Notes: a model not told the origin generated them from the sequence alone. A stretch of 64,000 nucleotides of DNA from Candidatus Micrarchaeia archaeon (GCA_041649555.1 JBAZMS010000002.1:67898-131897); one strand, 5' to 3'; positions 787-51,335 are shown, counted from the stretch's first letter. Made by a program: numbers and translations.

Positions 787-1467
787 TCAGACCACCTTTA
801 ATAAATCTTCAAATTTTTCAATTTCATAATCTGCCTTAAAATCTGATGACCTGTCCCATAATCCGTATTTTGCAAGACAGGTTTTCATTCCTAAAGCATT
901 AGCCCCCTTAATATCTCTTCCGGGGTTATCTCCAACAAATAAGACTTCATTTGGCTCTAATTTTAATTCTTCCAATGCTTTTTTGAATGGAAAATTAGAT
1001 GGTTTATGCTCATTAGTATCATCAAAGGTTACAATCACATCAAATAAATCATCTAAACCTGATAAGACTAATCTCATCCATGCCTTATTTCTTGGAGCAT
1101 CACTTACAACTCCTAGCTTATAATTTTCTTTTAATTTTCTTAAAGTTTCAATTACTTCCGGGTATGGTTTTAGGATTTCAAATTTTCTTTTTAAATATGC
1201 AACAATTGCTGCCTGCTGTATTCTTTCTGCCTTATTTATTTCTAAATTATACTGTTTTATTACCTGATAGAATGTCTTATTATATTCCACTCCATATAAA
1301 TCATAGGTTTCGAATATTTTTTTGTAAATATTTTCTTCTGTATCATTTAGGCCGTATTTTCTCATTTCCTTTGCTGCTGTCTTTGCTGTTTCTCTTTTAA
1401 AGGTTAGAAAGTCTAAAAGAGTATTATCCAAATCAAAAAGAATTGCCTTAAATTTCATTTTTTTCAC
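787..1467 (-). CDS. HAD-superfamily hydrolase (phosphatase-like)
   Basis: N-terminal DxDxT motif 'ILFDLDNTLLDF' and a C-terminal 'VGDNPGRDIKGANALGM' motif IV-like region typical of HAD phosphatases. Confidence 0.65.
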   Translation of the reverse strand: MKKMKFKAILFDLDNTLLDFLTFKRETAKTAAKEMRKYGLNDTEENIYKKIFETYDLYGVEYNKTFYQVIKQYNLEINKAERIQQAAIVAYLKRKFEILKPYPEVIETLRKLKENYKLGVVSDAPRNKAWMRLVLSGLDDLFDVIVTFDDTNEHKPSNFPFKKALEELKLEPNEVLFVGDNPGRDIKGANALGMKTCLAKYGLWDRSSDFKADYEIEKFEDLLKVV

Positions 1468-1829
1468 TTATTTTTTTTATTTGTACTGACATATTCATTA
1501 ATGAATTCTTCGATTGCCTGTACTCTTTCGTCTTTTTCCTGTTTTACTATTTGTTTCTTTTCTGTCTTATATTTTTTCTTATCTTCAAGATATACTGCAT
1601 ATCCTTTTGGGTCAAGCTCTTTTAGCATTTGAAGATATTCTTTTTCATATTCACTTTTTAAGGAGTGCAATCTCATTGAATGTGCAAATCCTGTTATTTT
1701 TTCCTCATTTACTATTAGTTTTTCCAAAGTTAATAAATCCATCAAGTATTCCGCATTTTTTTTATTTGCTTTTTTTAACTTTTCTTTAAGAAATTCACTT
1801 CTTGGTTGGTATTCTTTCATTATGTTCAC
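1464..1829 (-). CDS. hypothetical K/E-rich coiled-coil protein
   Basis: 121-aa ORF with charged/helical composition; no motif recognised. Confidence 0.3.
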   Translation of the reverse strand: MNIMKEYQPRSEFLKEKLKKANKKNAEYLMDLLTLEKLIVNEEKITGFAHSMRLHSLKSEYEKEYLQMLKELDPKGYAVYLEDKKKYKTEKKQIVKQEKDERVQAIEEFINEYVSTNKKNK

Positions 1830-1941
1830 CTTTTGTATAGCTTTTAATTATACAATACTATTTATAAACTTAACATTTCTTATACTATTTATGGTTACTC
1901 TAATCTCAACTTTCTATTCGTTTGAGCCATTCTTACCTGCA

Positions 1942-2469
1942 ATGCATAAATACTCAGCAAATAAGGTAATTCTAATGATAGATAAAGAGCCAAAAGAAAT
2001 AGTTACAAAAGCAATAGAAAAGGTAAAAGATACCTTTGGAACTGTTGCAAAAATAGAAATAGTAAAAGTTAATGGAACAGATTTATATGAAATAGCAAAA
2101 ACAACAGTAGATTTACTTGAAAAAGAGAAAGAAGTAATAGTTAATGTTTCAGGGGGATGGAAATTACTAGCTCAGGGCGTATTATACGGATGTTATGCCC
2201 GAGCTGATTTAGTTTCTAAAATAGTGTGTAATAAAATTGAGGATAATTCCATTGTAGAACTTCCCAAATTAACCTATAATTTAAGTGAGCCTAAAAGAAT
2301 ATTACTTGAAGAAATCTCCAATAGAAATGGTCGAAGTATTTCAGATATTGCAGATAAACTTTCCAAAACCCGTGGAATGCTATATCAACATTTAAAGGAA
2401 TTAAAAGATAGTGGATATGTAGATGAGAAATTTGAGATAACTGATGCTGGGAGGATGGCGTTACTATGA
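1942..2469 (+). CDS. CARF-domain (Csa3-like) + C-terminal winged-HTH regulator
   Basis: N-terminal Rossmann-like part contains 'NVSGGWK', which fits the CARF signature [DN]x[ST]xxx[RK]. The C-terminus 'ISDIADKLSKTRGMLYQHLKELKDSGYV' is a typical wHTH. The ORF track starts at 1822, but that N-terminal extension is a hydrophobic, low-complexity read-through of the promoter region; ATG 1942 (MHKYSANKVILMID) is the likely start. Confidence 0.45.
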   Translation: MHKYSANKVILMIDKEPKEIVTKAIEKVKDTFGTVAKIEIVKVNGTDLYEIAKTTVDLLEKEKEVIVNVSGGWKLLAQGVLYGCYARADLVSKIVCNKIEDNSIVELPKLTYNLSEPKRILLEEISNRNGRSISDIADKLSKTRGMLYQHLKELKDSGYVDEKFEITDAGRMALL

Positions 2470-2716
2470 GTTTATCTCGTATTTTCAAAGATGTATCATC
2501 ATGTTTATATAAAAATATAGTAAAACATACTAACATAATAGTACAAAAACATACTAAAACATGCTATTATGTTAGTACAAAAGTATGCTATGATATGTTA
2601 TTATAATGTAAGATCTTTATTTTAGGTCGGAGTACACCTCCCTGGTTTCCTTTATAAATATAATATCACTTATTCTATTGAGAAAGTGATAAAAAGCTTG
2701 TTGAAGAGGCATTATT
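2470..2716. promoter_or_regulatory. intergenic control region with a 13-bp-arm inverted repeat upstream of the R-M operon
   Basis: 'ACTAACATAATAG' ... ~22 nt ... 'CTATTATGTTAGT' are perfect reverse complements; repeated 'AAACATACTAA' half-sites; 'TTTATAAATATAAT' TATA-like element ~60 nt upstream of ATG 2717. Confidence 0.35.
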
Positions 2717-3577
2717 ATGAAAAAAGATCGCAACGATCCAAAACCCTTTGTTAAATGGGCAGGTGGAAAAAGACAATTAATAGATACCCTGTTTAACAAT
2801 ATTCCAGAGTCTTTTAACAATTATCATGAATCCTTTTTGGGTGGCGGAGCATTATATTTTAAACTATGGTCTGAAGGTCTTATAAAAAAAGCATTTCTTA
2901 ATGATTTTAATCACGATTTGATTAATGTTTATCAAATAATCAAAAGCAGGCCTAAAGAACTTATAGAGGAATTAAAATCTGGAAAATACAAAAATGAAAA
3001 AGATACTTTTTATAATATAAGAAAAAGTAAACCTCATGACTTGGTGGAAACAGCAGCAATTTTTATATATCTTAATAAAACCGCTTTTAATGGACTTTAC
3101 AGGGTAAATTCTAAAGGAGAATTTAATGTTCCTTTTGGAAAATATTCCAACCCAAAAATATGTGATGAGGAAAATATAATGATCGTTTCAGAATCTCTTA
3201 AAAGAGCTGCATTATCTTATGGCGACTTTTCACAAGTATTAAAAAATGTTAAAAAAGGGGATTTTGTATATCTTGATCCTCCCTATCATCCAATATCAAA
3301 AACCTCAAATTTTACTAATTATACTAAATTAGAGTTTAAAGAGGAAGACCAAATAAGGCTTAACGATACCTATAATAGATTAGATAACTCGGGTGCATTT
3401 GTTATGCTTAGCAATAGTACAGCGCCGTTTATTGTAGATCTTTATTCTAATTATAATACTCTAAGAGTTGATGCCAGAAGGGCCATAAATTGCAAAGCAG
3501 ATAAAAGAGGTCTGGTATCTGAACTAGTAGCTTTAAATTATGAGGTAGAATCCCATGCGCCATTTAGAAATTTATAA
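2717..3577 (+). CDS. Dam-family N6-adenine DNA methyltransferase (DpnM/MboA-like, alpha class)
   Basis: Motifs 'FVKWAGGKRQL', 'ESFLGGGALYF' (FxGxG) and 'DPPY' in the Dam (D12 class) order. Confidence 0.8.
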   Translation: MKKDRNDPKPFVKWAGGKRQLIDTLFNNIPESFNNYHESFLGGGALYFKLWSEGLIKKAFLNDFNHDLINVYQIIKSRPKELIEELKSGKYKNEKDTFYNIRKSKPHDLVETAAIFIYLNKTAFNGLYRVNSKGEFNVPFGKYSNPKICDEENIMIVSESLKRAALSYGDFSQVLKNVKKGDFVYLDPPYHPISKTSNFTNYTKLEFKEEDQIRLNDTYNRLDNSGAFVMLSNSTAPFIVDLYSNYNTLRVDARRAINCKADKRGLVSELVALNYEVESHAPFRNL

Positions 3578-4475
3578 TAAAAAAGATCTCAATAATGAAG
3601 AAAAAGTGTTCGATTTTTTAATAAATACTTTAATTCCTTCTGTTACCTCTTGGGATTATTTTGTTAATTGGGATAAAGTAAATAAGAATTTAAATGGAAT
3701 AAAAGTTGAATTAAATCTTCTAAATTCTCTTTTGGATTCCCAAAATTTGGAAAATGATTTTATTTCTCTTGTAAAAAAATACCCAAATATAATAAAAGCT
3801 ATTCCAGTTTTGCTTGCAGTAAGAGAAAAGAATTTAAAAATTCTTAAAGATTATCAAGAGAAAGATTTAGCCTATTTAAGTTTTGACTTTAATAAAACCG
3901 CTGTAAGTGATTCTGAAGCCAAAAACTATTTCATTTTTCTTAAAGAAACTCAATTAACTGAACTTTTCAAAAATAAAAAAATTAAAAATTTTGTTGATTA
4001 TGTTTTTGGTGTGGAAGTTGGGCTTGATTCCAATGGAAGAAAAAACAGAGGAGGAAAATTAATGGAAAAGATAACCGAGGTATTTGTTAAGGATGCTATT
4101 TCCAATAATTTTGAATATTTAGCCCAAGCAACACCTAAAAAAATAAAATTAAAATGGGGTTTTGAAGTGAAGTTTGAGAAATCCCAAAGAAGTTTTGATT
4201 TTGCTATTTTTAATGTTGAAAATAAGAAATTATATCTTATTGAATCTAATTTTTACAATGGCGGTGGCTCAAAACTTAAATCAGTTTGTGGAGAATTCAA
4301 AACTTTGTTTAATGAATTAGGTAAACAGGGAATAGAGTTAATATGGATAACCGATGGAAAAGGCTGGCTTACTGCAAGAAATCCTTTAAGAGAAACCTTT
4401 GATAATAATCATTTTGTATTTAATTTAGAGCTTTTAAAATTAGGTGCATTAAAAGAGGTAATTACAGGAGTGTAA
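3555..4475 (+). CDS. Type II restriction endonuclease, DpnII/MboI family (GATC-type)
   Basis: Blocks 'GVEVGLDSNGRKNR', 'NFYNGGGSKL', 'WITDGKGW' and 'LRETFD' recalled as conserved in R.DpnII/R.MboI; overlaps the upstream MTase stop by 23 nt (operon). Confidence 0.7.
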   Translation: MRHLEIYNKKDLNNEEKVFDFLINTLIPSVTSWDYFVNWDKVNKNLNGIKVELNLLNSLLDSQNLENDFISLVKKYPNIIKAIPVLLAVREKNLKILKDYQEKDLAYLSFDFNKTAVSDSEAKNYFIFLKETQLTELFKNKKIKNFVDYVFGVEVGLDSNGRKNRGGKLMEKITEVFVKDAISNNFEYLAQATPKKIKLKWGFEVKFEKSQRSFDFAIFNVENKKLYLIESNFYNGGGSKLKSVCGEFKTLFNELGKQGIELIWITDGKGWLTARNPLRETFDNNHFVFNLELLKLGALKEVITGV

Positions 4476-4478
4476 TCT

Positions 4479-5210
4479 GTGAAAATTAAGCCTGAAAATT
4501 TTGAATTAGAAAATACTAGTGTTTGGTCTTTTCCTGATAGGGGGGACTGGGCAACACATAAAGGAGATTATAGGGGCAATTTTTCACCATACATTCCAAG
4601 AAATGTAATTCTAAGATATTCAAAAGAAAATGATTTAATTTTAGATCCAATGTGTGGAAGTGGCACAACTCTTGTTGAGGCAAAACTTTTGAATAGGAAT
4701 GGTATTGGTTTTGATATAAATTCAAATGCAATTGAGTTTACTAAAAGTAGATTAAAATTTGACTATCACACCAGGACAAAACAAAGTATATTTTTAGGAG
4801 ATGCTAGAAAATTGAATTTAAAGAATGAATCTATCGATCTTATTGTTTGCCATCCGCCCTATTTGGATATTATAAAGTATAATCCTGAAAATGAAAAAGA
4901 TATTTCAAATATTCATAATCTTGATCAGTTTTTGGGTGAAATTAATTTAATTTCAAAGGAATTCTATAGAGTCTTAAAACCAAATAAATACTGCGCTATT
5001 CTTATTGGAGATACAAGAAGAAAAGGAATGTATATTCCACTTTCTTCTAAGGTTATGGATGTTTTTTTAAGGGCTGGATTTAAGTTAAAAGAGGATATCG
5101 TTAAAATTCAATGGAACTGCAAAACAACTCCTTACTGGAAGAGTTTATCTAGTAAATATAATTTTTTACTAATAATGCATGAGCATTTGTTTATCTTTAA
5201 GAAAAGTTAA
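4479..5210 (+). CDS. second DNA methyltransferase of the R-M system (N6-A/N4-C type; 'DPMCGSGTT' precedes 'CHPPY')
   Basis: AdoMet motif I 'LDPMCGSGTTLVEA' at residue ~56 and catalytic 'SIDLIVCHPPY' at ~125; GTG start at 4479 preceded by an 'AGGAG' Shine-Dalgarno ~10 nt upstream. Confidence 0.65.
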   Translation: MKIKPENFELENTSVWSFPDRGDWATHKGDYRGNFSPYIPRNVILRYSKENDLILDPMCGSGTTLVEAKLLNRNGIGFDINSNAIEFTKSRLKFDYHTRTKQSIFLGDARKLNLKNESIDLIVCHPPYLDIIKYNPENEKDISNIHNLDQFLGEINLISKEFYRVLKPNKYCAILIGDTRRKGMYIPLSSKVMDVFLRAGFKLKEDIVKIQWNCKTTPYWKSLSSKYNFLLIMHEHLFIFKKS

Positions 5211-5222
5211 TTGTTTTTCTGT

Positions 5223-6098
5223 TTAATCACTCAGTTTTTTTAACCATTTTATGAGTTTATCTAATTTTTCTGAATTTTTTCTATATTCTGAGATATACTT
5301 CATTATTTCATACATTGAGGTAATTATGATATTTTTTCCACTACGAAATTTTTTTATGTCTATTGCAGTCATTATATTATTTAACATAGTTTTAATCTCG
5401 TCATTTTCGTTTAATCTAATTGCTAATTCGTTTAATTCATATAATTCACCAATATTTTTTGAGTTTATACTCTCTTTAATGCTTTGTTTAACTATAGAAT
5501 CATCCATAAAATCTTTTTTTGAGTTATCATTAAGTTCATTTCCCCAAATATACTGATATCTTTTACAAAATAATTCCCAAAATTTTGCACTATTTTTAAT
5601 CGAATTTATACTCATTCTTTTCTTCATAATTTCTTTTAAAACTTCGACATCTGCATCATTAAATTTTATCTGTTTTGTATGAGCGCCAATACGTAATGGA
5701 ACTAATCCATCATATTTAATAAATTCAAATGGGTCATTTGATTTTTTAACTTCTAATATAAAATAATCATCTTTATCAATTGAATATTTTTCATGAGATT
5801 CTATGTTACTATCTAACTTTTCTAATTTATTTTTTTTGTATTTTTCAATTGACGCCCATTTTCGTTCCTTTATCCATTCGTTAGTTTTATTTTTATCACC
5901 ACTTTTTATTATGAAATATCCACCGAGACTGTTGTAAAAAGATATAATCCCTTTAAAAAAATCTTCATTATCTGGTAGTCCATTTTCACATTCTTTAAGC
6001 TCATAAAATTGATTTTCTTCTTCCCCTTTTATACCTCCTTCATTTATTTTTGTTTTTATTTCTTCTAAACTAGGTTTAATATCTATTAAATTTATCAT
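5223..6098 (-). CDS. AlbA_2 / Schlafen-like divergent-AAA domain protein
   Basis: N-terminus 'EENQFYELKE...FFKGIISFYNSLGGYFIIKSGD' matches the AlbA_2 pattern (E..E.K ... AFANxxGGyliiGv.D); the C-terminal ~200 aa are unassigned. Confidence 0.45.
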   Translation of the reverse strand: MINLIDIKPSLEEIKTKINEGGIKGEEENQFYELKECENGLPDNEDFFKGIISFYNSLGGYFIIKSGDKNKTNEWIKERKWASIEKYKKNKLEKLDSNIESHEKYSIDKDDYFILEVKKSNDPFEFIKYDGLVPLRIGAHTKQIKFNDADVEVLKEIMKKRMSINSIKNSAKFWELFCKRYQYIWGNELNDNSKKDFMDDSIVKQSIKESINSKNIGELYELNELAIRLNENDEIKTMLNNIMTAIDIKKFRSGKNIIITSMYEIMKYISEYRKNSEKLDKLIKWLKKLSD

Positions 6099-6257
6099 AT
6101 ATACACTTATTTAGATAAAGTTTTAGAATTTTTTGATTTTTATTTTCTTTTGATGTTCCTCTAAATCTTCTTTCTAAAAGAAAACTCCTCAAACAATCCC
6201 TTACTATCATTTAGCCTAAGACTAGCCCCAGTATAAAATTAAACAGAAAATAAAATC

Positions 6258-6818
6258 CTATCCTTTGCAAACCCGAACAAAGTTTTCCAAAACCTTTTTT
6301 CCTATTTCAAAAGAAACCTCTGGATGAAATTGAACACCATAAATATCCTTTTCCTTATGCTTCATTGCCTCATTATTACAGCTTTTTGATTTTGCAAGTA
6401 AAATAAAATCCAAAGGTAAATCAATATACTCGCTATGCTCTTCTCTAAAAAGGGATTTATCTAAAATCCCTTCAAATATTTGATCCTTTTCTATAATTTC
6501 AATTGTTTCCATTTTATTAATATTATTTCCTAAATAAACCTTAGCCCCATACAACAAACCAATCAGTTGATGGCCAAGACAAATTCCTAGGATTGGAATT
6601 TTAACTTTTTTAACAAATTGGAAAAGCTCCAAATACTTCCCCAAATCACTCTTGGTTAAAAGGGTTGGCGCGCCAGAAATAATAATTCCAGAAAAAGAAC
6701 TAAAATCAAACCCTTTGATCTCATCTAACCCAATAACCCTGCTTAAACAATTAAAACTTTTTAAATGATTTTTAATATCCTCAAGATGATTTGTTCCGCA
6801 GTTAATAATTAATATCAT
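6258..6818 (-). CDS. guaA: GMP synthase [glutamine-hydrolysing] subunit A (class I glutamine amidotransferase)
   Basis: 186 aa; 'GICLGHQLIG' catalytic Cys, 'YGVQFHPEV' His/Glu of the triad; collinear with archaeal GuaAA. Confidence 0.7.
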   Translation of the reverse strand: MILIINCGTNHLEDIKNHLKSFNCLSRVIGLDEIKGFDFSSFSGIIISGAPTLLTKSDLGKYLELFQFVKKVKIPILGICLGHQLIGLLYGAKVYLGNNINKMETIEIIEKDQIFEGILDKSLFREEHSEYIDLPLDFILLAKSKSCNNEAMKHKEKDIYGVQFHPEVSFEIGKKVLENFVRVCKG

Positions 6819-6854: not shown

Positions 6855-7901
6855 TTAAATCCCCCTAATAAACTCCCCAAACAACTCCCTGCTATCATTT
6901 GGCCCAGGACAGCTTTCAGGATGAAACTGAACAGAAAATATAGGTTTAGAAATATGCCTCATCCCTTCATTACTATTATCCAATAGATTATAATGAGTAA
7001 CTTCAAAACAAGAAGGAACCTTGGAAACAGCAAACCCGTGATTTTGCGTAGTGATTAGAACCTTTTTCCTAAAACAATCATAAACAGGATGATTACTTCC
7101 CCTATGCCCAAACTTCAATTTATAAGTAGAACCTCCAAATGCATGGGCAATACACTGATGTCCAAGACAAATTCCAAACATAGGCAAATCACAAAGTTCT
7201 CTAATAACCTTATGGACATTTTTCAAAAGAGCAGGATCCCCCGGGCCATTTGAAATTACAACTCCGGAAGGATTAAACTTTCTAATCTCCTCGCTTGTAA
7301 AATTATATGGAACAGAAATAACTTCAATTCCTCTTTTATTCAATTCACGGATTATTCCCATCTTTACCCCTAAATCAATCAATACGACCTTCTTATTTCC
7401 ACTTCCAAACCTTTCAACTTTTGAAGTGCCAACCTTTGATACAAAATCAGTCAAAGAATATTCAAATTTCAAATTTTTAATTATCTTTTCAATATCAGGT
7501 TTTTCATTCTCATATACTGCAAGGCAGGATGAAACTACCCCAAATTCTCTTATTTTTTTGGTAATTTCACGGGTATCCACTCCAAAAATTCCTCCAACCC
7601 CAAAATCTTCCAAATACTTATCAAGGCCAGAAGAAAAATCCAACTCCCTTACAACAAACCCTGATACCCAAACCTTGGAACTCTCGCAATTCTTTATATC
7701 CAACCCATAATTTCCAATCAAAGGATAGGTTAAAGTTAAAATCTGCCCAGCATAGCTTGGATCAGTTAACGCTTCCTGATAGCCCTGCATTGAAGTATTA
7801 AACACTAATTCTCCAGTTCTAAAGCCAATTGCCCCAAATCCAGCCCCAAAAAATACACTTCCATCTGATAATATGAGAACCGCATTTTTATTCATAATCA
7901 T
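6855..7901 (-). CDS. carA: carbamoyl-phosphate synthase small (glutaminase) subunit
   Basis: CarA N-domain 'QGYQEALTDPSYAGQILTLTYPLIGNYG' and GATase 'GICLGHQ'. Start moved from the ORF-track value (8033) to ATG 7901 (MIMNKNAVL), which sits 4 nt downstream of a GGAGGT Shine-Dalgarno; 14-nt overlap with the carB stop. Confidence 0.8.
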   Translation of the reverse strand: MIMNKNAVLILSDGSVFFGAGFGAIGFRTGELVFNTSMQGYQEALTDPSYAGQILTLTYPLIGNYGLDIKNCESSKVWVSGFVVRELDFSSGLDKYLEDFGVGGIFGVDTREITKKIREFGVVSSCLAVYENEKPDIEKIIKNLKFEYSLTDFVSKVGTSKVERFGSGNKKVVLIDLGVKMGIIRELNKRGIEVISVPYNFTSEEIRKFNPSGVVISNGPGDPALLKNVHKVIRELCDLPMFGICLGHQCIAHAFGGSTYKLKFGHRGSNHPVYDCFRKKVLITTQNHGFAVSKVPSCFEVTHYNLLDNSNEGMRHISKPIFSVQFHPESCPGPNDSRELFGEFIRGI

Positions 7902-10900
7902 AAAACCTCCGTATCTCATATTCCTCTTTTGAATACTTTTCAATAGCTTCAACAAACTCAACAGCAGTGCGGATATTTGTAATGCATGGAATTCCAAATT
8001 CAATGCTTTTTCTTCGGATAATAAATCCGTCAATATAGCTTTCCTCTTCCTGCGAGGGAATATTAATCACCAGATCTATTTTTCCAAGGTCAATCAATTC
8101 AATTATATCATAGCTTTCTTTTTCATTTCCAAGCTTATTTACAATTCTGATCTCTCCAATTTCACGAAGTTCAAATGCAGTTCCAGGAGTTGCATATAAA
8201 ATAAATCCAAGGGAATGCAGTTTTCTTGCAATCTCCAAAACTTCTTTTCTGTCTTCTTTGCGGACAGTCAAAAGGACACAACCTTTGGAAGCAACACAAA
8301 TCCCACTTGATTTTAATGCCTTATAATACGCTGATTCAAAATCAGAGCCAATTCCCATGCTCTCTCCGGTGCTTTTCATTTCAGGGCCAAGTAAGATATC
8401 CTCTCCGGGAAGTTTAAGAAAAGGAAAAACAACCCCCTTTACTGCATAATGGGTTATTTTCCTTTCTTTTTCTAAAAGTTTTTCACCAAGCATTGATTCA
8501 ACAGCCAGTTTAACCAGGGAAATATCAATTGATTTGGAAAGAAAAGGAACAGTCCTGCTTGCCCGCGGGTTTGCCTCCAAAATATAAATTTCATTGTCCT
8601 TGACTGCAAACTGGATATTCAAAAATCCGGTTATTCCAAGGGAAAGTGAAATCTCCCGGGTATATTTTTTTATTTTCTCAACTATCTTATAGGATAAATT
8701 GAGGGAAGGAATTACAATATTTGCATCCCCTGAATGCACTCCTGCAAACTCAATGTGCTCCATTACTCCTCCAATGAATACATTAGAGCCGTCACATACT
8801 GCATCAACCTCGCATTCAATTGCATTATCAAGGTATTTATCAATTAATACAGGCTTATCTTCGCTTAGTTCAATTGCACTGTCAATATATTTTTCCAATT
8901 CCACTAAAGAAAACACAATCTGCATTCCGCGCCCTGCAATCACATAAGAAGGGCGCACAATTATTGGATAGCCAAGTTTTTGTGCAGCATCAAATGCCTC
9001 TTCTTTTTTTCTTACAGTAAGGCTTGGGGGCTGTTTTATTTTAAGCCTGTCCATCAAATCCTTGAATTTCTCCCTGTCCTCTGCAATGTCTATACTTTCA
9101 AAAGATGTTCCAAGTATTTTAACCCTGTCTTTTAATTTTTCAGCCAATTTAATTGAAGTCTGTCCTCCAAGCTGCACTATGACCCCTAATAAATTCTCAT
9201 CCAATTCATTCTCAATTATATTCAATACGCTCTCATAATCCAAAGGCTCAAAATATAATCTTGAACTCGAATCAAAATCAGTGCTTACTGTTTCAGGGTT
9301 ATTATTAATCATTACAGATTCAATTCCCATCTTCTTTAAGGCAAAGGAGGCCTGAGAGCAGCAATAGTCAAATTCTATTCCCTGTCCAATCCTTATAGGC
9401 CCTGATCCGATAATTATTACTTTTTTCTTTTTCAAAGAAACTGCCTCGTTTTCAGATTCATAAGTGGAATAAAAATAAGGGGTTATTGCCTCAAATTCTC
9501 CAGAACAGCTGTCAACCATTTTATATACCGGAATTATTCCAAAAGATTTCCTGAGATTTCTTATATTCTCTTCTGTTTTTCCCTTCAGGCTTGCAATTTT
9601 AAGATCACTAATCCCAAGTTTTTTATATTCAGATAGGTTTTCTTTTGTAAGAGTTTCATTTTCAATTTTTTTCTCGGTTAAAATCAGTTTTTCAATTCTT
9701 TTCAAAAACCATCTGTTTATTTTTGTAATAGAATAAATCTCCTCGATTGTTTTTCCATCCCTGAAGGCATCAAAGAGTGCAAATAAGCGGAGATTGGTTG
9801 CAGGCTCAAGATGTTTGATATAATCAAATTTAACAGGAATTTTAATCTCAAGCCCTGCCACTGCCTTTAAGAGAGCCTCTTCAAAACTTCTTCCAATTGC
9901 CATAACCTCTCCGGTACTTTTCATCTGTGTTCCAAGGGTTCTTTTTGCAGAAGAAAACTTGTCAAAAGGCCAGCGGGGAATTTTAACCGTTATATAATCA
10001 AGAGATGGTTCAAGCGAGGAGGTTTTTCCAATTATCGGATTTATGATCTCATTTAGGGTTTTTCCAATGGCAATTTTTGCTGCAATGCGCGCAATAGGAT
10101 ATCCAGTAGCTTTTGATGCAAGGGCAGAAGAACGGGAAAGGCGGGGATTTACTTCAATTACGCTGTATTCTCTAGTTTTCCTGTTATATGCAAACTGGAC
10201 ATTGCATGAACCTTGTATTTCAAGAGCCCGCACTATTTTAATTGAAGCATCACGAAATCTTTGGTGCTCTTTATCAGAAAGGGTTTGTGAAGGCGCAACA
10301 ACAATGCTTTCTCCTGTGTGTATTCCCATTGGGTCAAAATTTTCCATATTGCATATGACAATACAATTATCACCCGAATCCCTGACAATCTCATATTCAA
10401 ATTCCTCCCATCCTTTCACGCTTCTCTCAATTAAAACCTCATGATTCATACTAAGCTTGAATGCAACATCCAGCAGGTTTTTAAGTTCGGTTTCATTATT
10501 TGCAAATCCCCCTCCGCTTCCACCAAGGGTAAATGCAGGGCGCACAATTACAGGGTAATTTATTTTCTCGGCATAAGAATAAGCAGAAGAGTGGTCCTTA
10601 ACACTATAGCTTTCAAGTATTGGAATTCCGATTTCTTTCATCAGGGAATTAAATAATTCCCGGCTCTCGGCTTTTTCAATTGAGTTAAAATCAGTTCCAA
10701 TGAGCTTAACATTATATTTTTCAAGTATTCCCTTTTTTTCAAGCTCAACTGCAAGATTGAGTGCAGTCTGCCCTCCGCAGGTTGCAAGAATTGAATCTAT
10801 TCCCTCGTTTATGATTATTTTTTCAATTGTTTTAATATCCAGGGGCTCAATATAAACTGCATCAGCTGTTTGCCTGTCTGTTTGAATTGTTGCAGGGTTA

Positions 10901-11046
10901 GAATTCACCAAAACAACAAATACTTTTTCTTCCTTTAGTGCCCTGCATGCCTGTGTTCCTGAATAATCAAATTCTGCGCTTTGTCCGATTATAATCGGTC
11001 CGGAACCTATTACAAGAACTTTTTTTACATCAGGCATCAAAAACAC
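7888..11046 (-). CDS. carB: carbamoyl-phosphate synthase large subunit
   Basis: 1052 aa; duplicated ATP-grasp halves (VIGSGPIIIGQSAEFDYSG ... IIGSGPIRIGQGIEFDYC) and a C-terminal MGS-like domain. Confidence 0.9.
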   Translation of the reverse strand: MFLMPDVKKVLVIGSGPIIIGQSAEFDYSGTQACRALKEEKVFVVLVNSNPATIQTDRQTADAVYIEPLDIKTIEKIIINEGIDSILATCGGQTALNLAVELEKKGILEKYNVKLIGTDFNSIEKAESRELFNSLMKEIGIPILESYSVKDHSSAYSYAEKINYPVIVRPAFTLGGSGGGFANNETELKNLLDVAFKLSMNHEVLIERSVKGWEEFEYEIVRDSGDNCIVICNMENFDPMGIHTGESIVVAPSQTLSDKEHQRFRDASIKIVRALEIQGSCNVQFAYNRKTREYSVIEVNPRLSRSSALASKATGYPIARIAAKIAIGKTLNEIINPIIGKTSSLEPSLDYITVKIPRWPFDKFSSAKRTLGTQMKSTGEVMAIGRSFEEALLKAVAGLEIKIPVKFDYIKHLEPATNLRLFALFDAFRDGKTIEEIYSITKINRWFLKRIEKLILTEKKIENETLTKENLSEYKKLGISDLKIASLKGKTEENIRNLRKSFGIIPVYKMVDSCSGEFEAITPYFYSTYESENEAVSLKKKKVIIIGSGPIRIGQGIEFDYCCSQASFALKKMGIESVMINNNPETVSTDFDSSSRLYFEPLDYESVLNIIENELDENLLGVIVQLGGQTSIKLAEKLKDRVKILGTSFESIDIAEDREKFKDLMDRLKIKQPPSLTVRKKEEAFDAAQKLGYPIIVRPSYVIAGRGMQIVFSLVELEKYIDSAIELSEDKPVLIDKYLDNAIECEVDAVCDGSNVFIGGVMEHIEFAGVHSGDANIVIPSLNLSYKIVEKIKKYTREISLSLGITGFLNIQFAVKDNEIYILEANPRASRTVPFLSKSIDISLVKLAVESMLGEKLLEKERKITHYAVKGVVFPFLKLPGEDILLGPEMKSTGESMGIGSDFESAYYKALKSSGICVASKGCVLLTVRKEDRKEVLEIARKLHSLGFILYATPGTAFELREIGEIRIVNKLGNEKESYDIIELIDLGKIDLVINIPSQEEESYIDGFIIRRKSIEFGIPCITNIRTAVEFVEAIEKYSKEEYEIRRFYDYE

Positions 11047-11267: not shown

Positions 11268-12641
11268 ATGAAATTCTACAACAGGGAAGCTGAAAAAAAG
11301 GCATTGGAAGATGCAATAAAAAAATCCCCGGCCCTAATTCTAATTAAAGGCAGAAGGAGAGTTGGAAAAACCGCCCTGATACTTAATTCAATAAAAGAAA
11401 ATGCAATCTATTTTTTTATAGACAATAAAAAAACTGAAAAAAATCTTTTATTTGAATTCGAAGAAATATTAAAAAAGGAGTTGAATCTTCCAAATTACAT
11501 AAAAATTGAAAAATGGGAGCATTTCTTTCAAATTATTTTTGAAAGCAAAAAAACAATTATACTAGACGAATTCCAGAGAATTCTGGGCATCTCCCCTTCT
11601 GCAATAAACCAACTGCAAAAATTCTGGGATTTGAATCCTCCAAAAAATGCCCTGATACTCTCCGGCTCAAATATAGGAATGATAAAAAAAATATTCATAA
11701 ATGAGGGTTCCCCACTATTTAAAAGAGCGACAATGGACATGACCTTAAAATCATTGGATTTTTCGGTATGCAAAAAAATACTAAAAGATCTTGGAATAAA
11801 AGATTTTGAAAACCAGTTTAAAATCTATTCAATTATAGGCGGGATTCCTTATTACTATAGTCTTTTGCAGAATGAAACTATAGAATCATGGAAGGATGTT
11901 GTAAAAATCATATTTCTCAATCCGTTTTCTCCGCTAAAAAATGAGGTAAATGATACATTAATAGAAGGTTTTGGAAAAGAGCATTTAAGTTATTATGCAG
12001 TATTAAATGCAATTGCCCTTGGAAAAACCACAAAAAAAGAAATCTCTGATTTTTCAGGAATATTGCCTTCTTCCATTTCCCCTTATTTATATGATTTGGG
12101 AAATCTTTTGGATATAATAGAATATGAAATTCCGATAACTGAAAAAAAACCGTGGAAAACAAAGCTTGGAAGATTTATTCTAAAGGATAATTTCTTCAGA
12201 TTTTGGTTTAAATTTATATTTAGGCATCAAAGTATTTATGAAAAAGCGAATTATTCATATTTATTTGAATTAATAGAAAAGGATTTTGATTCATTTTCAG
12301 GATTTTCATTTGAAAATGTTGCAAGGGAATTTATACTAAAATTAAACAATAAAAATAATCTTCCGGTTAAATTTGACAAAATCGGCAGATGGTGGGATAG
12401 AAAAGGTCAGGAAATAGACATGGTTCTAATTTCTGATAGGGATGATGCAATAATGCTTATTGAATGCAAATGGAAGGAAGATGCAAACCCGGAAATGATA
12501 TTGTCCTCTCTAATGGAAAAGGAAAAATTCCTAAACCATAAAAAGAAAAATGTTTTCTATGGAATTATTGCAAAAAGTTTTAAAAATAAAACAAAAAATG
12601 CAATAGTTTTTGATATTAATGATCTGGAAAAAAATTTATAA
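11268..12641 (+). CDS. archaeal ATPase (Arch_ATPase/AAA + DUF234-type C-terminus)
   Basis: Walker A 'GRRRVGKTAL', Walker B-like 'IILDEFQ', and a C-terminal 'IGRWWDRKGQEIDMVLI...LIECKWKE' DUF234 signature. Confidence 0.7.
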   Translation: MKFYNREAEKKALEDAIKKSPALILIKGRRRVGKTALILNSIKENAIYFFIDNKKTEKNLLFEFEEILKKELNLPNYIKIEKWEHFFQIIFESKKTIILDEFQRILGISPSAINQLQKFWDLNPPKNALILSGSNIGMIKKIFINEGSPLFKRATMDMTLKSLDFSVCKKILKDLGIKDFENQFKIYSIIGGIPYYYSLLQNETIESWKDVVKIIFLNPFSPLKNEVNDTLIEGFGKEHLSYYAVLNAIALGKTTKKEISDFSGILPSSISPYLYDLGNLLDIIEYEIPITEKKPWKTKLGRFILKDNFFRFWFKFIFRHQSIYEKANYSYLFELIEKDFDSFSGFSFENVAREFILKLNNKNNLPVKFDKIGRWWDRKGQEIDMVLISDRDDAIMLIECKWKEDANPEMILSSLMEKEKFLNHKKKNVFYGIIAKSFKNKTKNAIVFDINDLEKNL

Positions 12642-41175: not shown

Positions 41176-42141
41176 TTATTTTTTAATTAAATAATTATAT
41201 CCAGGTGTCCATTCATCAGTTCTAAGAATTACTGAATCTATCGTATTTATTACATTTGGAAATTTTTCCTTTAATTTTTTAATTATTCCATAGTATTCAT
41301 CATAATTTTTAATCACGAATTCAAGTTCTATTCTCCAAATATTTCTTATAAAATATTGGATTTGAGGTATTTGGCTGCAATATTCCAATAACATCTTTTC
41401 CTCCTCTTTGGTATAACTGTCAATTTTGATCATTGCCTTATAATGTTCAAGATTTAGTTTTATCAAATCAATTTGGACTCTATATTGGAGTATTATCTCT
41501 AATTTTTCCATCCTTTTTATTTTTGAAATTACAGTTGTAGGGTTTGTTGAGGCATATCTTGCTATCTCCACTGTAGAACTTCTTGCATTGGAAATGAGAT
41601 ACTCTAATATTTTTTGATCTGTTTTATCTAATTTATTCTGGATAATTTTACCTGCAAATTCTACAGGTTTACATAGCTCATTATTAAAATACATTTTTGG
41701 ATATTGCTTAACATCTAAAAGCCAGTCTCCATAAAAATCAATAATTATGTCTTTAAATTCAGAAATAATCTTATTTTTTAAATCATAAAAAACATAAATA
41801 TCATCTGAATATGCTGCAAATATAAGATCCCATGAGCCGTCGCATTCTCCCATCCAGTATATATTTATAAATTTTCTAAGAGAATCGATAAGAACTTCTT
41901 TTCTGTTTGGAATATTTTTTAATTTAATATATACTTTAAATAACTGAAAACCCATTTTATTTGGATTTATTGAGGTTGTAAATCCAGTGAGTATCCCATT
42001 TTTTATGAGCTGATTTATTCTATATGCAACTGTTTGTCTTGAACGGCGTATTTTTTTGCCAAGTTCACTATCTGAAATTCTGCAATTTTTATCTAATTCA
42101 CTTAAGATTTGTTTGTCGATTTTATCGAGTTTATATTCCAT
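41176..42141 (-). CDS. tandem Lrp/AsnC-type transcriptional regulator (two HTH + RAM modules)
   Basis: 'DKIDKQILSELDKNCRISDSELGKKIRRSRQTVAYRINQLIKNGIL' and a second copy 'DKTDQKILEYLISNARSSTVEIARYASTNPTTVISKIKRMEKL'. ATG at 42141 (MEYKL) preferred over the GTG at 42150. Confidence 0.6.
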   Translation of the reverse strand: MEYKLDKIDKQILSELDKNCRISDSELGKKIRRSRQTVAYRINQLIKNGILTGFTTSINPNKMGFQLFKVYIKLKNIPNRKEVLIDSLRKFINIYWMGECDGSWDLIFAAYSDDIYVFYDLKNKIISEFKDIIIDFYGDWLLDVKQYPKMYFNNELCKPVEFAGKIIQNKLDKTDQKILEYLISNARSSTVEIARYASTNPTTVISKIKRMEKLEIILQYRVQIDLIKLNLEHYKAMIKIDSYTKEEEKMLLEYCSQIPQIQYFIRNIWRIELEFVIKNYDEYYGIIKKLKEKFPNVINTIDSVILRTDEWTPGYNYLIKK

Positions 42142-42250
42142 AAATATCACTTATATTTAGCATTTTAAAAGAAAAAGTATTAAAATAGTATGTTTTTGCA
42201 AAAAATTGAAAGATATATTTAATATATTTCTAATGTTCTAATAGATGTGG
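42114..42250. repeat. bidirectional promoter region, copy A (Lrp <-> radical SAM)
   Basis: ~130-nt segment ~90% identical to 43513-43650, including the first 9 codons of the Lrp gene on the minus strand. Confidence 0.75.
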
Positions 42251-49762: not shown

Positions 49763-51335
49763 TTGGAGGTGATCTATCCGCAGGTTCCCCTACGGATACC
49801 TTGTTACGACTTAGCCCTCCTCACACTTCCCCGATTCGAACCTGACTATGATCAGGGCCTCATCGAAAAAATATTCGGATGACTTGACGGGCGGTGTGTG
49901 CAAGAAGCAGGGACACATTCACCGCGAGATAGTGACTCGCGATTACTAGCCATTCCAGCTTCATGAGGGTGAGTTGCAACCCTCAATTCGAACTATGGTT
50001 GGATTTAGGGGATTTGCTTCTCCTCTCGGAGTTGCGGCCCATTGTTCCAATCACTGTATGCCGCGTGTAGCCCAAGGCATTCGGGCCATACTGACCTACC
50101 GTCGCCCACTTCTTCCTCCCATTTAACACGGGCAGTCCTCTTAAAGTGCTCCATATCCGCAGATATAGATAGCAACTAAGAGCATGGGTCTCGCTCGTTT
50201 CAGGACTTAACCTGACAGTTCACACCACGAGCTGACGATGGCCATGCAACACCTCTCGGCTTGTCAGGCAAGATCTTTAGTCTGACCTTCATACTGCCGT
50301 CGGCCTTGGTGATATTTCTGGCGTTGTATCCAATTAAACCGTAGCATCCACGGCTTGTGGTGCTTCCCCGCCAATTCCTTTAAGTTTCAATCTTGCGATC
50401 GTACTCCCCAGGCGGCAGACTTAACACTTACATACCTAAAACTTAAAAATTTAAGTTATAAGGTTCTACGCTACAGCACTTCCCTAACTTACGTTAGAGA
50501 AACACCAGAGTCTGCATCATTTACTGCTAGGACTACCGGGGTCTCTAATCCCGTTCGCTCCCCTAGCCTTCGTCCCTCACCGTCAGAAACGTTTTGATTG
50601 GGCGCCTTCGCCACTGATAGTCCACCTAGGATCAACGGATCGTAATCTTTAAATTGCAAATTTTAGACGCAGTTTAAAGATTTTTACCCCTACCCCAGGT
50701 GTACTCCCAATCTCCCCCGTTCTCTAGCCTAACAGTATCTACTGCACGCCTTAGAGTTAAGCCCTAAGATTTCACAGTAGACTTAATAAGCCGGCTACGG
50801 ACGCTTTAGGCCCAGTATACGTGGGTACCACTCGAGGCGCTGGTATTACCGCGGCGGCTGCCACCAGTCTTTCCCACACCCTTATTCTCCAAGTTATTTA
50901 CACTTGGCAAAAGACATTGGCAAAGCCAATGCCACTCAGAATCCCCCTATCACGCTTTCGCGCATTGTAAAGTTTTCGTCCCTGCTGCATCCCGTAGGAC
51001 TAGGGCCCTTGTCTCAGTGCCCTTCTGGGGGCCACCACTCTCATGGCCCCTAGAGATTATAGGTTTGGTGAGCCGTTACCACACCAACAGCCTAATCCCC
51101 CGCAGTCCCGTCCTATGGCGGTCTGGCTACAATTTGCCAGCCTTTTGAATGATTAAGCATTCCAGCATAAATCATCTATCGTGGATTATCCTCAGTTTCC
51201 CGAGGTTATACACGTCCTTAGGGTAGGTTGACTACGTGTTACTCAGCCTTGTGCCACTTTTGGAAGCCCAAAAGTAGACTTGCATGGTTTATTCGGATTC
51301 TGATAGCAGTACCCTCCAGTAGGATCAACTGGAAT
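49763..51335 (-). rRNA. rrs: 16S ribosomal RNA (stand-alone, no linked 23S or spacer tRNA)
   Basis: Minus-strand reading gives 5' 'ATTCCAGTTGATCCTACTGGAGGGTACTGCTATCA...' and 3' '...AAGTCGTAACAAGGTATCCGTAGGGGAACCTGCGGATAGATCACCTCC'. Universal blocks are present (the 515 region 'GTGGCAGCCGCCGCGGTAATAC', the 806 region 'GGATTAGAGACCCCGGTAGTCC'). Confidence 0.9.

Follow-up and report, generated by a model that had tools for sequence, protein, structure and literature searches.

A conserved CARF-wHTH regulator gene probably heads a slot for exchangeable defence cassettes in Micrarchaeota

What is a CARF regulator doing beside a restriction-modification (R-M) system in archaeal DNA that has no CRISPR locus at hand? 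The question is raised by a stretch of 64,000 nucleotides from Candidatus Micrarchaeia archaeon (GCA_041649555.1, JBAZMS010000002.1:67898-131897), here called the window, with positions counted from its first letter. In it, a gene for a protein with a CARF domain and a winged helix-turn-helix (wHTH) domain is followed by a methyltransferase-endonuclease-methyltransferase (M-R-M) set of the DpnII/MboI(/MjaIII) type and by one further gene on the opposite strand. An initial annotation of this DNA had taken these genes for a compact defence-like island of four consecutive genes. Comparison with related loci (designated L001, L002 and so on) led us to another reading, which we hold with moderate confidence: the locus would be a vertically inherited CARF-wHTH regulator gene that heads a slot of exchangeable defence cassettes throughout the Micrarchaeota, with the R-M set as its occupant here. 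The features on which the argument turns are as follows.

1834..1854, no strand assigned: palindromic operator candidate TGTATAGCTTTTAATTATACA (consensus TGTATAG-N7-CTATACA), beside the TATA box of the CARF gene.
1861..1868, plus strand: TATA box TTTATAAA of the presumed CARF promoter, read from the sequence.
1891..2469, plus strand: Csa3-family CARF-wHTH protein of 192 amino acids, a predicted ligand-sensing transcription factor (Pfam, PADLOC, NCBIfam, AlphaFold2/Foldseek).
2470..2716, plus strand: structured spacer of 247 nt, particular to this genome (sequence reading, repeat search, RNA fold).
2717..3577, plus strand: Dam-like D12-class N6-adenine DNA methyltransferase with a DPPY motif (Pfam PF02086, 6.6e-64, positions 1-253 of 253).
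3555..4475, plus strand: DpnII/MjaIII-family Type II restriction endonuclease (Pfam PF04556, 1.1e-90, positions 2-277 of 278).
4479..5210, plus strand: second DNA methyltransferase, N6_N4 family (Pfam PF01555, 5.2e-27; PADLOC MTase_II, 3e-89, full length).
5223..6098, minus strand: near-orphan protein of 291 amino acids with a weak AlbA_2-like N-terminal region (Pfam AlbA_2, below cut-off).

The assignment of the first product to the CARF-wHTH proteins of the Csa3 family, already proposed in the initial annotation, was borne out by Pfam, PADLOC and NCBIfam profiles and by a structure match. The protein exceeded the Pfam cut-offs for HFX_2341_N (1.3e-8, 35.8 bits versus 30), Csa3_N (1.8e-7, 31.6 bits versus 27) and, in its wHTH part, HTH_5 (1.2e-6, 28.8 bits versus 22) and HTH_24 (24.0 bits versus 21.9). 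It also matched PADLOC CARF3 (1.1e-49) and the NCBIfam model TIGR01884 (cas_HTH, “Csa3”; 76.2 bits versus a cut-off of 60.2), so that by domain content and curated model score it is best classed as a member of this family. A profile search of the sequences in the PDB matched the wHTH of PH1932 and failed to reach the Csa3 structures, the identity to solved Csa3 being only ca. 15%, and a comparison of structures was therefore needed. The AlphaFold2 model (mean predicted local distance difference test, pLDDT, 94.3) gave its best Foldseek E-values (5e-9) with Csa3 of Sulfolobus solfataricus (2WTE and 6WXQ, in the apo and cyclic tetra-adenylate [cA4]-bound states), while the best superposition was with the CARF-HTH ring nuclease Sis0811/Sso1393 (template modelling [TM] score of 0.66, root mean square deviation [rmsd] of 4.0). 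The start of the gene had been placed at 1942 and has to be moved to the ATG at 1891, which adds 17 residues that include the conserved first strand (TLISTFYSF); if translation began at 1942, the first 19 positions of the PADLOC profile would remain unmatched. A public Micrarchaeia protein has exactly the sequence of the resulting 192-residue product.

Among 5.8 billion proteins searched, the CARF protein had 147 homologues at 55 to 79% identity, nearly all of the named ones from Micrarchaeota, and scans of genomes and metagenomes yielded 22 plus 68 CARF loci (47 to 79% identity). No relative was found in 2.9 million viral contigs, and an origin from a virus or plasmid was rejected on that ground. 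When 33 diverse homologues were aligned, the mean column identity was 67%; S10 in the first loop was invariant, as were G88 and K91 of the SGGWK loop that follows strand 4, and the region of the wHTH recognition helix, GMLYQHLKELK, was among the most conserved stretches of the protein. The gene is not complete everywhere. It is truncated in L021 (1209-3969, amino acids 1 to 124 only), reduced to a 3' fragment in L022 (10001-10249, amino acids 110 to 192) and to a tail in L087 (965-1075, amino acids 156 to 192), and it is thus disrupted or lost at times. Two metagenome-assembled genomes (MAGs) each hold two CARF loci. Those of JACRGB01 (L003 and L005) both have the HAD-CARF arrangement, with a Type I R-M system in one and an MvaI M-R-M set in the other, and those of JAUSHJ01 (L004 and L006) also differ in cargo; either these are true paralogous loci or they are strain variants that were binned together. 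Within the window, a hidden Markov model (HMM) built from the Micrarchaeota CARF family detected no second copy. The only other matches to Csa3/CasR profiles came from a 324-amino-acid Lrp/AsnC-like protein (41176-42150, minus strand), which hits six Csa3/CasR/CARF3 profiles of PADLOC (to 1.3e-9) with the wHTH part alone; a second CARF gene was ruled out, and the Lrp-like open reading frame (ORF) is a trap for automated “Csa3” calls.

Alignment of the regions upstream of the CARF genes brought out a palindrome just before the TATA box (TTTAWAA). In the window, the copy at 1834-1854 is the sole match with up to two mismatches. Across 748 kb of related loci there were 35 matches, 27 of which sit 57 to 85 nt before a CARF start, while seven head a longer operon with one or two genes between the promoter and the CARF gene; the remaining one lies in the promoter of a neighbouring convergent UvrD-PDDEXK gene (L008), and none was found elsewhere. 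As a rough estimate, chance would give ca. 0.2 matches per 334 kb at this spacing with up to one mismatch. The copy in L008 (4047-4067) is a second and perfect one, and it is placed downstream of the TATA box of the UvrD-PDDEXK gene, a repressor-like position, whereas in the CARF promoter the operator precedes the TATA box. Relatives keep the motif TTTAWAA(R)CTTAAC at an equal distance upstream of the CARF gene, with the start codon ca. 30 nt after the TATA box; in the window the distance to the CARF ATG is likewise 30 nt, which implies a leaderless or near-leaderless mRNA. Judged by position and specificity, the pattern is that of an autoregulated DNA-binding protein, and the CARF-wHTH protein would be the binder of the palindrome. 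Scans for sigma-70 promoters and intrinsic terminators gave counts at or below the shuffled expectation and are uninformative for an archaeon. In L009 (8925-10001), L010 (2656-4013), L037, L079 and L036, the operator and promoter lie 0.3 to 1.4 kb upstream of the CARF gene, and one or two further genes of the same strand intervene (YhcG-like in L009), so that cargo seems to be insertable before the CARF gene as well as after it.

What follows the CARF gene was surveyed in 64 nonredundant loci with enough sequence downstream. The first ORF 3' of the gene was on the same strand in 59 of them, and in 41 of these 59 the gap was 12 nt or less: 15 loci had a gap of exactly 9 nt, and in 15 others the two genes overlapped by the 4 nt ATGA. 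The 9-nt linker resembles a Shine-Dalgarno (SD) sequence (TGA-GGTGAnnnn-ATG) and recurs before unrelated genes: GGCGAAATA/T is identical before an MmeI-type methylase, HsdM and an Eco57I-type enzyme, and GATGATATT before an AlbA_2-like gene and an Eco57I-type enzyme. Pfam searches on ca. 50 of the downstream genes showed that the cargo is nearly always of a defence type. R-M systems were of Type I (HsdR/M/S, with HARE-HTH and RmuC), Type II (MvaI/BcnI and DpnII sets) and Type IIG (Eco57I/MmeI), and the claim that a CARF gene adjoins restriction genes thus proved to hold repeatedly in relatives. The commonest cargo was a protein with AlbA_2, HATPase_c_4 and wHTH domains. We also found a PLD-SNF2 helicase with an Eco57I-type methylase, GmrSD, YhcG/DUF1016, DUF3800, NurA-HerA, a C5 methylase, a DUF4011 helicase, UvrD-PDDEXK, AIPR and Type IV restriction, plus ca. 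10 proteins with no Pfam match; there were no cas genes among the ca. 50 annotated. The nearest relatives of the CARF protein studied here carry other cargo, namely, an MmeI-type enzyme (79% identity), YhcG (70%) and AlbA_2 (68%). As far as these comparisons go, the cargo does not follow the CARF tree, and the CARF gene is best described as a vertically inherited gene of the lineage and not as part of a mobile four-gene island.

Some loci carry traces that may reveal how the cargo is exchanged. In L002, the 3' end of the CARF gene and a direct repeat of it (72 to 77 nt, ca. 90 to 98% identical) stand on either side of a single AlbA_2 gene. Counting this locus, diverged copies of the CARF 3' end (16 to 78 nt, 82 to 100% identity) follow cassettes in at least 10 loci (L002, L014, L017, L025, L027, L028 with two copies, L032, L058, L059 and L085), where they are placed after the first cassette and 10 to 30 nt before the next gene. 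The divergence of the repeats makes it unlikely that they arose in assembly. Exactly this layout would result if a circular cassette with a tail copy recombined with the resident CARF gene by a single crossover. An integrase common to the slot was considered and rejected, the only candidate being a tyrosine integrase in L007 that has no homologue in ca. 90 other loci. In the window itself, no remnant of the CARF 3' end was found after the R-M cassette at the protein level. There is a 13-nt exact direct repeat, TATGAGTTTATCT, at 2465-2477 (spanning the CARF stop codon) and 5250-5262 (within the 3' end of the near-orphan gene); about one such repeat is expected by chance, and the pair may mean nothing.

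The cassette that fills the slot in the window is present and intact, as the initial annotation had it, with full-length profile matches for the three enzymes. The Dam-like methyltransferase scored 290 bits against TIGR00571 (cut-off of 115) and is 78% identical to the corresponding gene of L007. The DpnII-family nuclease is 76 to 77% identical to two Micrarchaeota relatives and 60 to 67% identical to methanogen proteins, one of them named MjaIII by its source, and more remote homologues occur in a range of methanogens and in other DPANN archaea. The second methyltransferase (76% identical to that of L007) takes the position of DpnA or M.MboIC in the DpnII/MboI systems. The M-R-M gene order is that of MboI. 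Overlapping reading frames had been described for the whole set; this is so for the Dam and DpnII frames, which overlap by 23 nt, while the DpnII gene and the second methyltransferase gene are 3 nt apart. Judging from the sequences, all three enzymes look functional and should make up an ordinary Type II system, in which host DNA is methylated and DNA lacking the methylation is cut, presumably at GATC, the specificity suggested by family membership. GATC itself is mildly depleted in the window (observed/expected ratio of 0.66); as a sign of R-M activity this does not discriminate, given that the depletion is similar or stronger in loci that lack the cassette, several other Micrarchaeota loci without it nearby (among L014, L016, L041 and L052) having ratios of 0.09 to 0.22. 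The most depleted 4-nt palindrome in the window is ACGT (0.32).

The same set of enzymes turns up in other settings. In one other lineage (L007 and L034), a CARF gene (its product 62% identical to that of the window) is followed after 9 nt by the same Dam-DpnII-methyltransferase set at 76 to 78% identity, and in L007 the tyrosine integrase stands directly after the cassette. In L094 the set lies 3 kb away, on the other side of the CARF gene and behind a HAD-HD-beta-CASP operon, and L098 has a GATC-type DpnII-Dam-methyltransferase set in another gene order and convergent to the CARF gene. A 63%-identical nuclease is found in a different defence island of Methanomethylovorans with no CARF gene. 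DNA similarity between the window and L007 or L094 is limited to 2736-5205. From these comparisons, the cassette is a mobile unit of three genes, which has arrived in the vicinity of the CARF gene on several occasions.

How tightly is this cassette coupled to the CARF gene in the window? The 247 nt between them (2470-2716) contain a 34-bp tandem repeat (2511-2582) and a perfect 14-nt inverted repeat (2528-2541/2564-2577), and the RNA fold (z = -2.98) includes a predicted 16-bp stem. There was no Rfam match to the spacer even at an E-value of 1, by which a known RNA was rejected, and it has no homologue in ca. 100 related loci. A second TATA-like box is present at 2651-2658, and an SD-like AGAGG precedes the Dam ATG. 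No copy of the operator was found within the spacer at up to two mismatches; a 29-nt similarity between the CARF and Dam promoter regions, considered as such a copy, is mostly the TATA box in AT-rich sequence. The R-M genes can thus probably be transcribed on their own. The spacer is free of runs of five or more T, which makes read-through from the CARF gene possible, and control of restriction by the CARF protein, for instance by this route, is plausible. Given a spacer of this length with its own TATA-like box, ligand control of restriction is an inference for this genome and cannot be read from the sequence. An ORF of 46 amino acids (2466-2606, plus strand; MSLSRIFKDV...) overlaps the CARF stop codon by ATGA, in the manner of first cargo genes elsewhere. 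It is included in the public gene call for the same contig (L024), and a similar sequence (TGAGTTTAT...) follows the CARF stop codon in L005; the ORF may represent a small gene or what is left of earlier cargo.

The last gene between the cassette and the right flank had been annotated as an AlbA_2 (Schlafen-like) gene on the opposite strand. The minus-strand gene is there (5223-6098), but its family could not be upheld, since the score against AlbA_2 (PF04326; 22.1 bits, E-value of 2.4e-4) falls below the gathering cut-off of 25.3. The protein had no match in PADLOC or NCBIfam and no HATPase_c_4 or HTH match in Pfam. The genuine AlbA_2 cargo of Micrarchaeota (L002, L010, L014, L021 and L025) has the AlbA_2 + HATPase_c_4 + wHTH architecture that is lacking here. 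Only two relatives were found among 1.8 billion representative proteins. One of them, 40% identical and the only clear relative (L101, 3272-8256), lies between an MmeI/Eco57I Type IIG enzyme and an AlbA_2 + HATPase_c_4 protein in an apparent three-gene operon, with a 4-nt overlap into the gene of the near-orphan family and no adjacent CARF gene. By its neighbours and profile scores, then, the protein belongs to a rare family found in defence islands, and membership in AlbA_2 is not demonstrable.

The genes on either side of the locus behave differently with respect to the CARF gene. ORFs and Pfam matches agree with the initial annotation on the flanks, a HAD hydrolase on one side and the guaA-like, carA and carB genes on the other, and the five genes between the hydrolase and the guaA-like gene (CARF, Dam, DpnII, second methyltransferase and near-orphan) are all intact. 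The nearest flanking genes are the following.

787..1467, minus strand: HAD-family hydrolase (Pfam HAD_2, 1e-35), marking the conserved, vertically inherited side.
1464..1829, minus strand: protein of 121 amino acids with no assigned function, divergent from the CARF gene; its true start is probably an ATG near 1820.
6258..6818, minus strand: glutamine amidotransferase resembling GMP synthase subunit A (Pfam GATase, 4.3e-31), the housekeeping right edge of the variable region.

The HAD hydrolase is divergent from and upstream of the CARF gene in about half of the related loci (47 to 69% identity by tblastn). The 121-amino-acid protein matched no family in Pfam or NCBIfam, and homologues of its gene were found at the equivalent position in L001, L002, L012, L025, L026, L046 and L054. 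On the right, where the guaA-like, carA and carB genes run on the minus strand from 6258 onward, the guaA-like gene is not syntenic with the CARF gene in related loci; its best NCBIfam match is GMP synthase subunit A, below the cut-off of that model. Just 3' of it, a 72-nt stretch (6182-6252) shares 78% identity with the 3' end of the carA coding sequence (6870-6940); at this right-hand border of the variable region, an amidotransferase C-terminus may have left a remnant. The longest ORF for carA (6855-8033, with a TTG start at 8033) overlaps the end of carB (7888-11046, minus strand) by ca. 145 nt; since 6855-7910 is enough to match the full CarA model, the real start probably lies near 7910.

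In the window as a whole (ca. 30% G+C), the profile scan detected no cas genes, no cas10 and no nucleotide cyclases, including those of the cyclic oligonucleotide-based antiphage signalling system (CBASS) type, and no CRISPR array emerged from searches for tandem repeats or spaced direct repeats; the absence of cas genes and arrays noted at the outset thus stands. A complete archaeal 16S rRNA gene is present at 49764-51335 (minus strand) and no 23S or 5S gene was reported across the 64 kb, so that the rRNA genes appear to be unlinked. Just past carB, ca. 5 kb from the R-M cassette, an ATPase_2/DUF234 protein (11268-12641, plus strand) matches the PADLOC candidate defence family PDC-S27 (4.6e-40). 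A pooled scan of 12000-64000 gave single-member PADLOC matches to mad3 (1.6e-28), mad2 (1.8e-21), mad8 (4e-15), QatD and AriA, some of which probably reflect generic enzyme folds such as TatD or ABC ATPases.

How would such a locus work? In the reading that we favour, a vertically inherited CARF-wHTH gene with a palindromic operator beside its TATA box would head the slot, unrelated defence genes would be exchanged between genomes behind it, and here the slot would be filled by the intact MjaIII/DpnII/MboI-type cassette together with the near-orphan gene of a defence-island family. The CARF protein would most likely be a dimeric transcription factor that holds a nucleotide-like ligand in its CARF pocket and binds the palindrome through its wHTH domains, setting the output of its own promoter. 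In most relatives this promoter would also have to drive the cargo, because there are 9 nt between the CARF stop codon and the cargo, or else the two overlap by 4 nt. In the window the coupling looks looser; read-through could still link the CARF gene to restriction, and the regulatory link is the weakest part of the argument in this genome. Several observations weigh against this reading. No source of a ligand is at hand, both cas10 and a CBASS-type cyclase being absent from the window. The best TM-score is to Sis0811, so the protein may act as a ring nuclease, in place of or in addition to being a transcription factor. The palindrome could also be bound by some factor other than the CARF protein. 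The R-M genes have their own TATA-like box at 2651 with no operator copy upstream, and the 247-nt gap is an outlier, gaps of more than 130 nt being found in only 2 of the 59 other loci. Finally, the same cassette occurs without a CARF gene in methanogens and on the far side of the CARF gene in L094, and a GATC-type set is convergent to it in L098.

In an alternative proposal, the locus is a recombination hotspot and nothing more: the CARF 3' end would be a landing site, the R-M system would be autonomous, and the CARF protein would regulate itself or other targets. The repeats of the CARF 3' end that flank cassettes agree with it, as do the integrase beside the same cassette in L007, the spacer with its TATA-like box and no operator, and the cassettes placed on the HAD side (L094), in convergent orientation (L098) or in methanogens that have no CARF gene there. 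What renders it rather unlikely in our view is that in 41 of 59 loci no more than 12 nt separate the CARF stop codon from the cargo, or the two overlap, with shared SD-like linkers, which would make co-transcription nearly unavoidable; moreover, a perfect second operator copy is found in the promoter of the UvrD-nuclease gene of L008, and the integrase of L007 lacks homologues in the other loci. We consider it improbable that the protein is mainly a ring nuclease for cyclic oligoadenylate, or a ligand sponge, like Crn1/Sis0811, damping a signal made elsewhere. Its best superposition is indeed with Sis0811/Sso1393 (TM 0.66, rmsd 4.0), and the invariant S10 in the first loop and K91 after strand 4 are of the residue kinds that ring nucleases use according to the literature; but a conserved palindrome at a fixed distance in the promoter is characteristic of a DNA-binding protein that regulates its own gene, few stretches of the protein are as well conserved as the region of the recognition helix (GMLYQHLKELK), and no cyclase is nearby in the 64 kb. 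The two activities are, besides, mutually compatible.

The original idea of a dedicated signalling-restriction module, in which the CARF gene, the M-R-M set and an AlbA_2 effector move together and are gated by a nucleotide, can draw on the adjacency of all the genes, on the conserved residues of the CARF pocket and on L007 and L034, where a CARF gene precedes the same M-R-M set. It was largely refuted by the synteny survey of relatives, in which the set of four never recurs, and we regard it as the least probable of the alternatives. The AlbA_2-like gene has almost no relatives, the CARF genes closest to this one are followed by other cargo, and the homology of the R-M genes stops exactly at the three coding regions; the R-M proteins are also closer to those of L007 (76 to 78%) than the CARF protein is (62%), which fits separate histories. 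In the opposite direction, the favoured reading of a CARF-headed slot can be extended to a lineage-wide, integron-like platform, an idea that we find possible and put forward only tentatively. A ligand-responsive CARF promoter would express any defence cassette that is inserted, and the CARF 3' end would be the recombination site; cassettes would excise as circles with one CARF tail and re-insert by a single crossover, leaving diverged tails behind. The ligand would not come from Cas10, because these archaea rarely show Type III CRISPR systems.

In order to put the locus into perspective, it may be compared with known systems. Csa3a and Csa3b of the Sulfolobales (2WTE, 6WXQ and 6W11) have the same two-domain architecture, and Csa3 has been reported to bind a palindromic DNA target (PMC8844856), as is predicted here. 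Binding of cA4 in the pocket of the CARF dimer is a character of the Csa3 family; in the protein studied here, the loop residues S10, G88 and K91 are conserved. A CRISPR-cas neighbourhood, typically of Type I-A, is a hallmark of the Csa3 family; the CARF gene of the window is without one, and none was seen in the examined cargo of its relatives. Instead of being tied to Type I-A loci, this gene is conserved within a DPANN lineage and heads an operon of restriction or defence genes. Most DPANN archaea encode solo Cas4 and not the CRISPR-associated form (PMC5704561), which fits with CRISPR being uncommon in them. Makarova et al. (2014) predicted that CARF and WYL proteins are ligand-binding regulators of defence and noted that a CARF-AAA+-HTH family often adjoins R-M systems (PMC4012209); the statement in the initial annotation that a CARF gene beside an R-M system is undescribed was therefore too strong. 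Those RtcR-like proteins embody the same idea of ligand-controlled restriction, with a CARF regulator beside R-M genes. They belong to the sigma-54 enhancer-binding proteins of bacteria and combine a divergent CARF domain with an AAA+ domain, in contrast to the small archaeal Csa3-type protein without an ATPase found here. In the literature that we covered on Csa3 in Micrarchaeota and on CARF with R-M systems in DPANN archaea, which did not include the 2020 CARF classification, there was no description of this locus.

The closest match to the apparent working of the CARF locus is found among the WYL regulators of the BrxR/CapW type. BrxR/WYL regulators stand upstream of diverse bacterial defence systems and islands (PMC9122601, PMC9122589). 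There too a ligand sensor with a wHTH lies directly upstream of unrelated defence systems, on the same strand, with a palindrome in its own promoter. The sensor in BrxR is a WYL domain, whereas here it is a CARF domain (there was no WYL match), and the hosts are archaea with promoters of the TATA/B recognition element (BRE) kind. Unlike BrxR, the CARF gene keeps a fixed chromosomal position with conserved upstream synteny, and copies of its 3' end separate the cassettes. In this last respect the locus may recall integrons and defence hotspots, in which a fixed platform with one promoter precedes mostly promoter-less, exchangeable cassettes separated by repeats. No platform integrase (IntI) was found here, the conserved neighbours being the HAD hydrolase and a protein with a beta-CASP/metallo-beta-lactamase fold, and what is repeated is the 3' end of the platform gene, in place of attC-like hairpins. 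The C-protein R-M systems have a small HTH-only controller with C-boxes, in contrast to a CARF-wHTH protein of 192 amino acids and the lack of an operator copy in 2470-2716. As for the enzymes, DpnII (Streptococcus pneumoniae), MboI and MjaIII comprise the same trio, and only the location of the cassette differs. The R-M system itself is thus ordinary and the architecture is the point of interest, the locus consisting of known parts in an apparently undescribed, BrxR-like arrangement.

Such an arrangement would extend to CARF proteins in DPANN archaea a principle seen with WYL proteins in bacteria, that of a sensor-regulator placed before interchangeable defence systems. A conserved CARF sensor that is detached from CRISPR raises the question of its ligand and of what makes it. 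A simple mechanism of cassette exchange is suggested by the repeated CARF 3' ends, and the position just downstream of the CARF gene makes the uncharacterised Micrarchaeota genes found there strong candidates for new defence functions.

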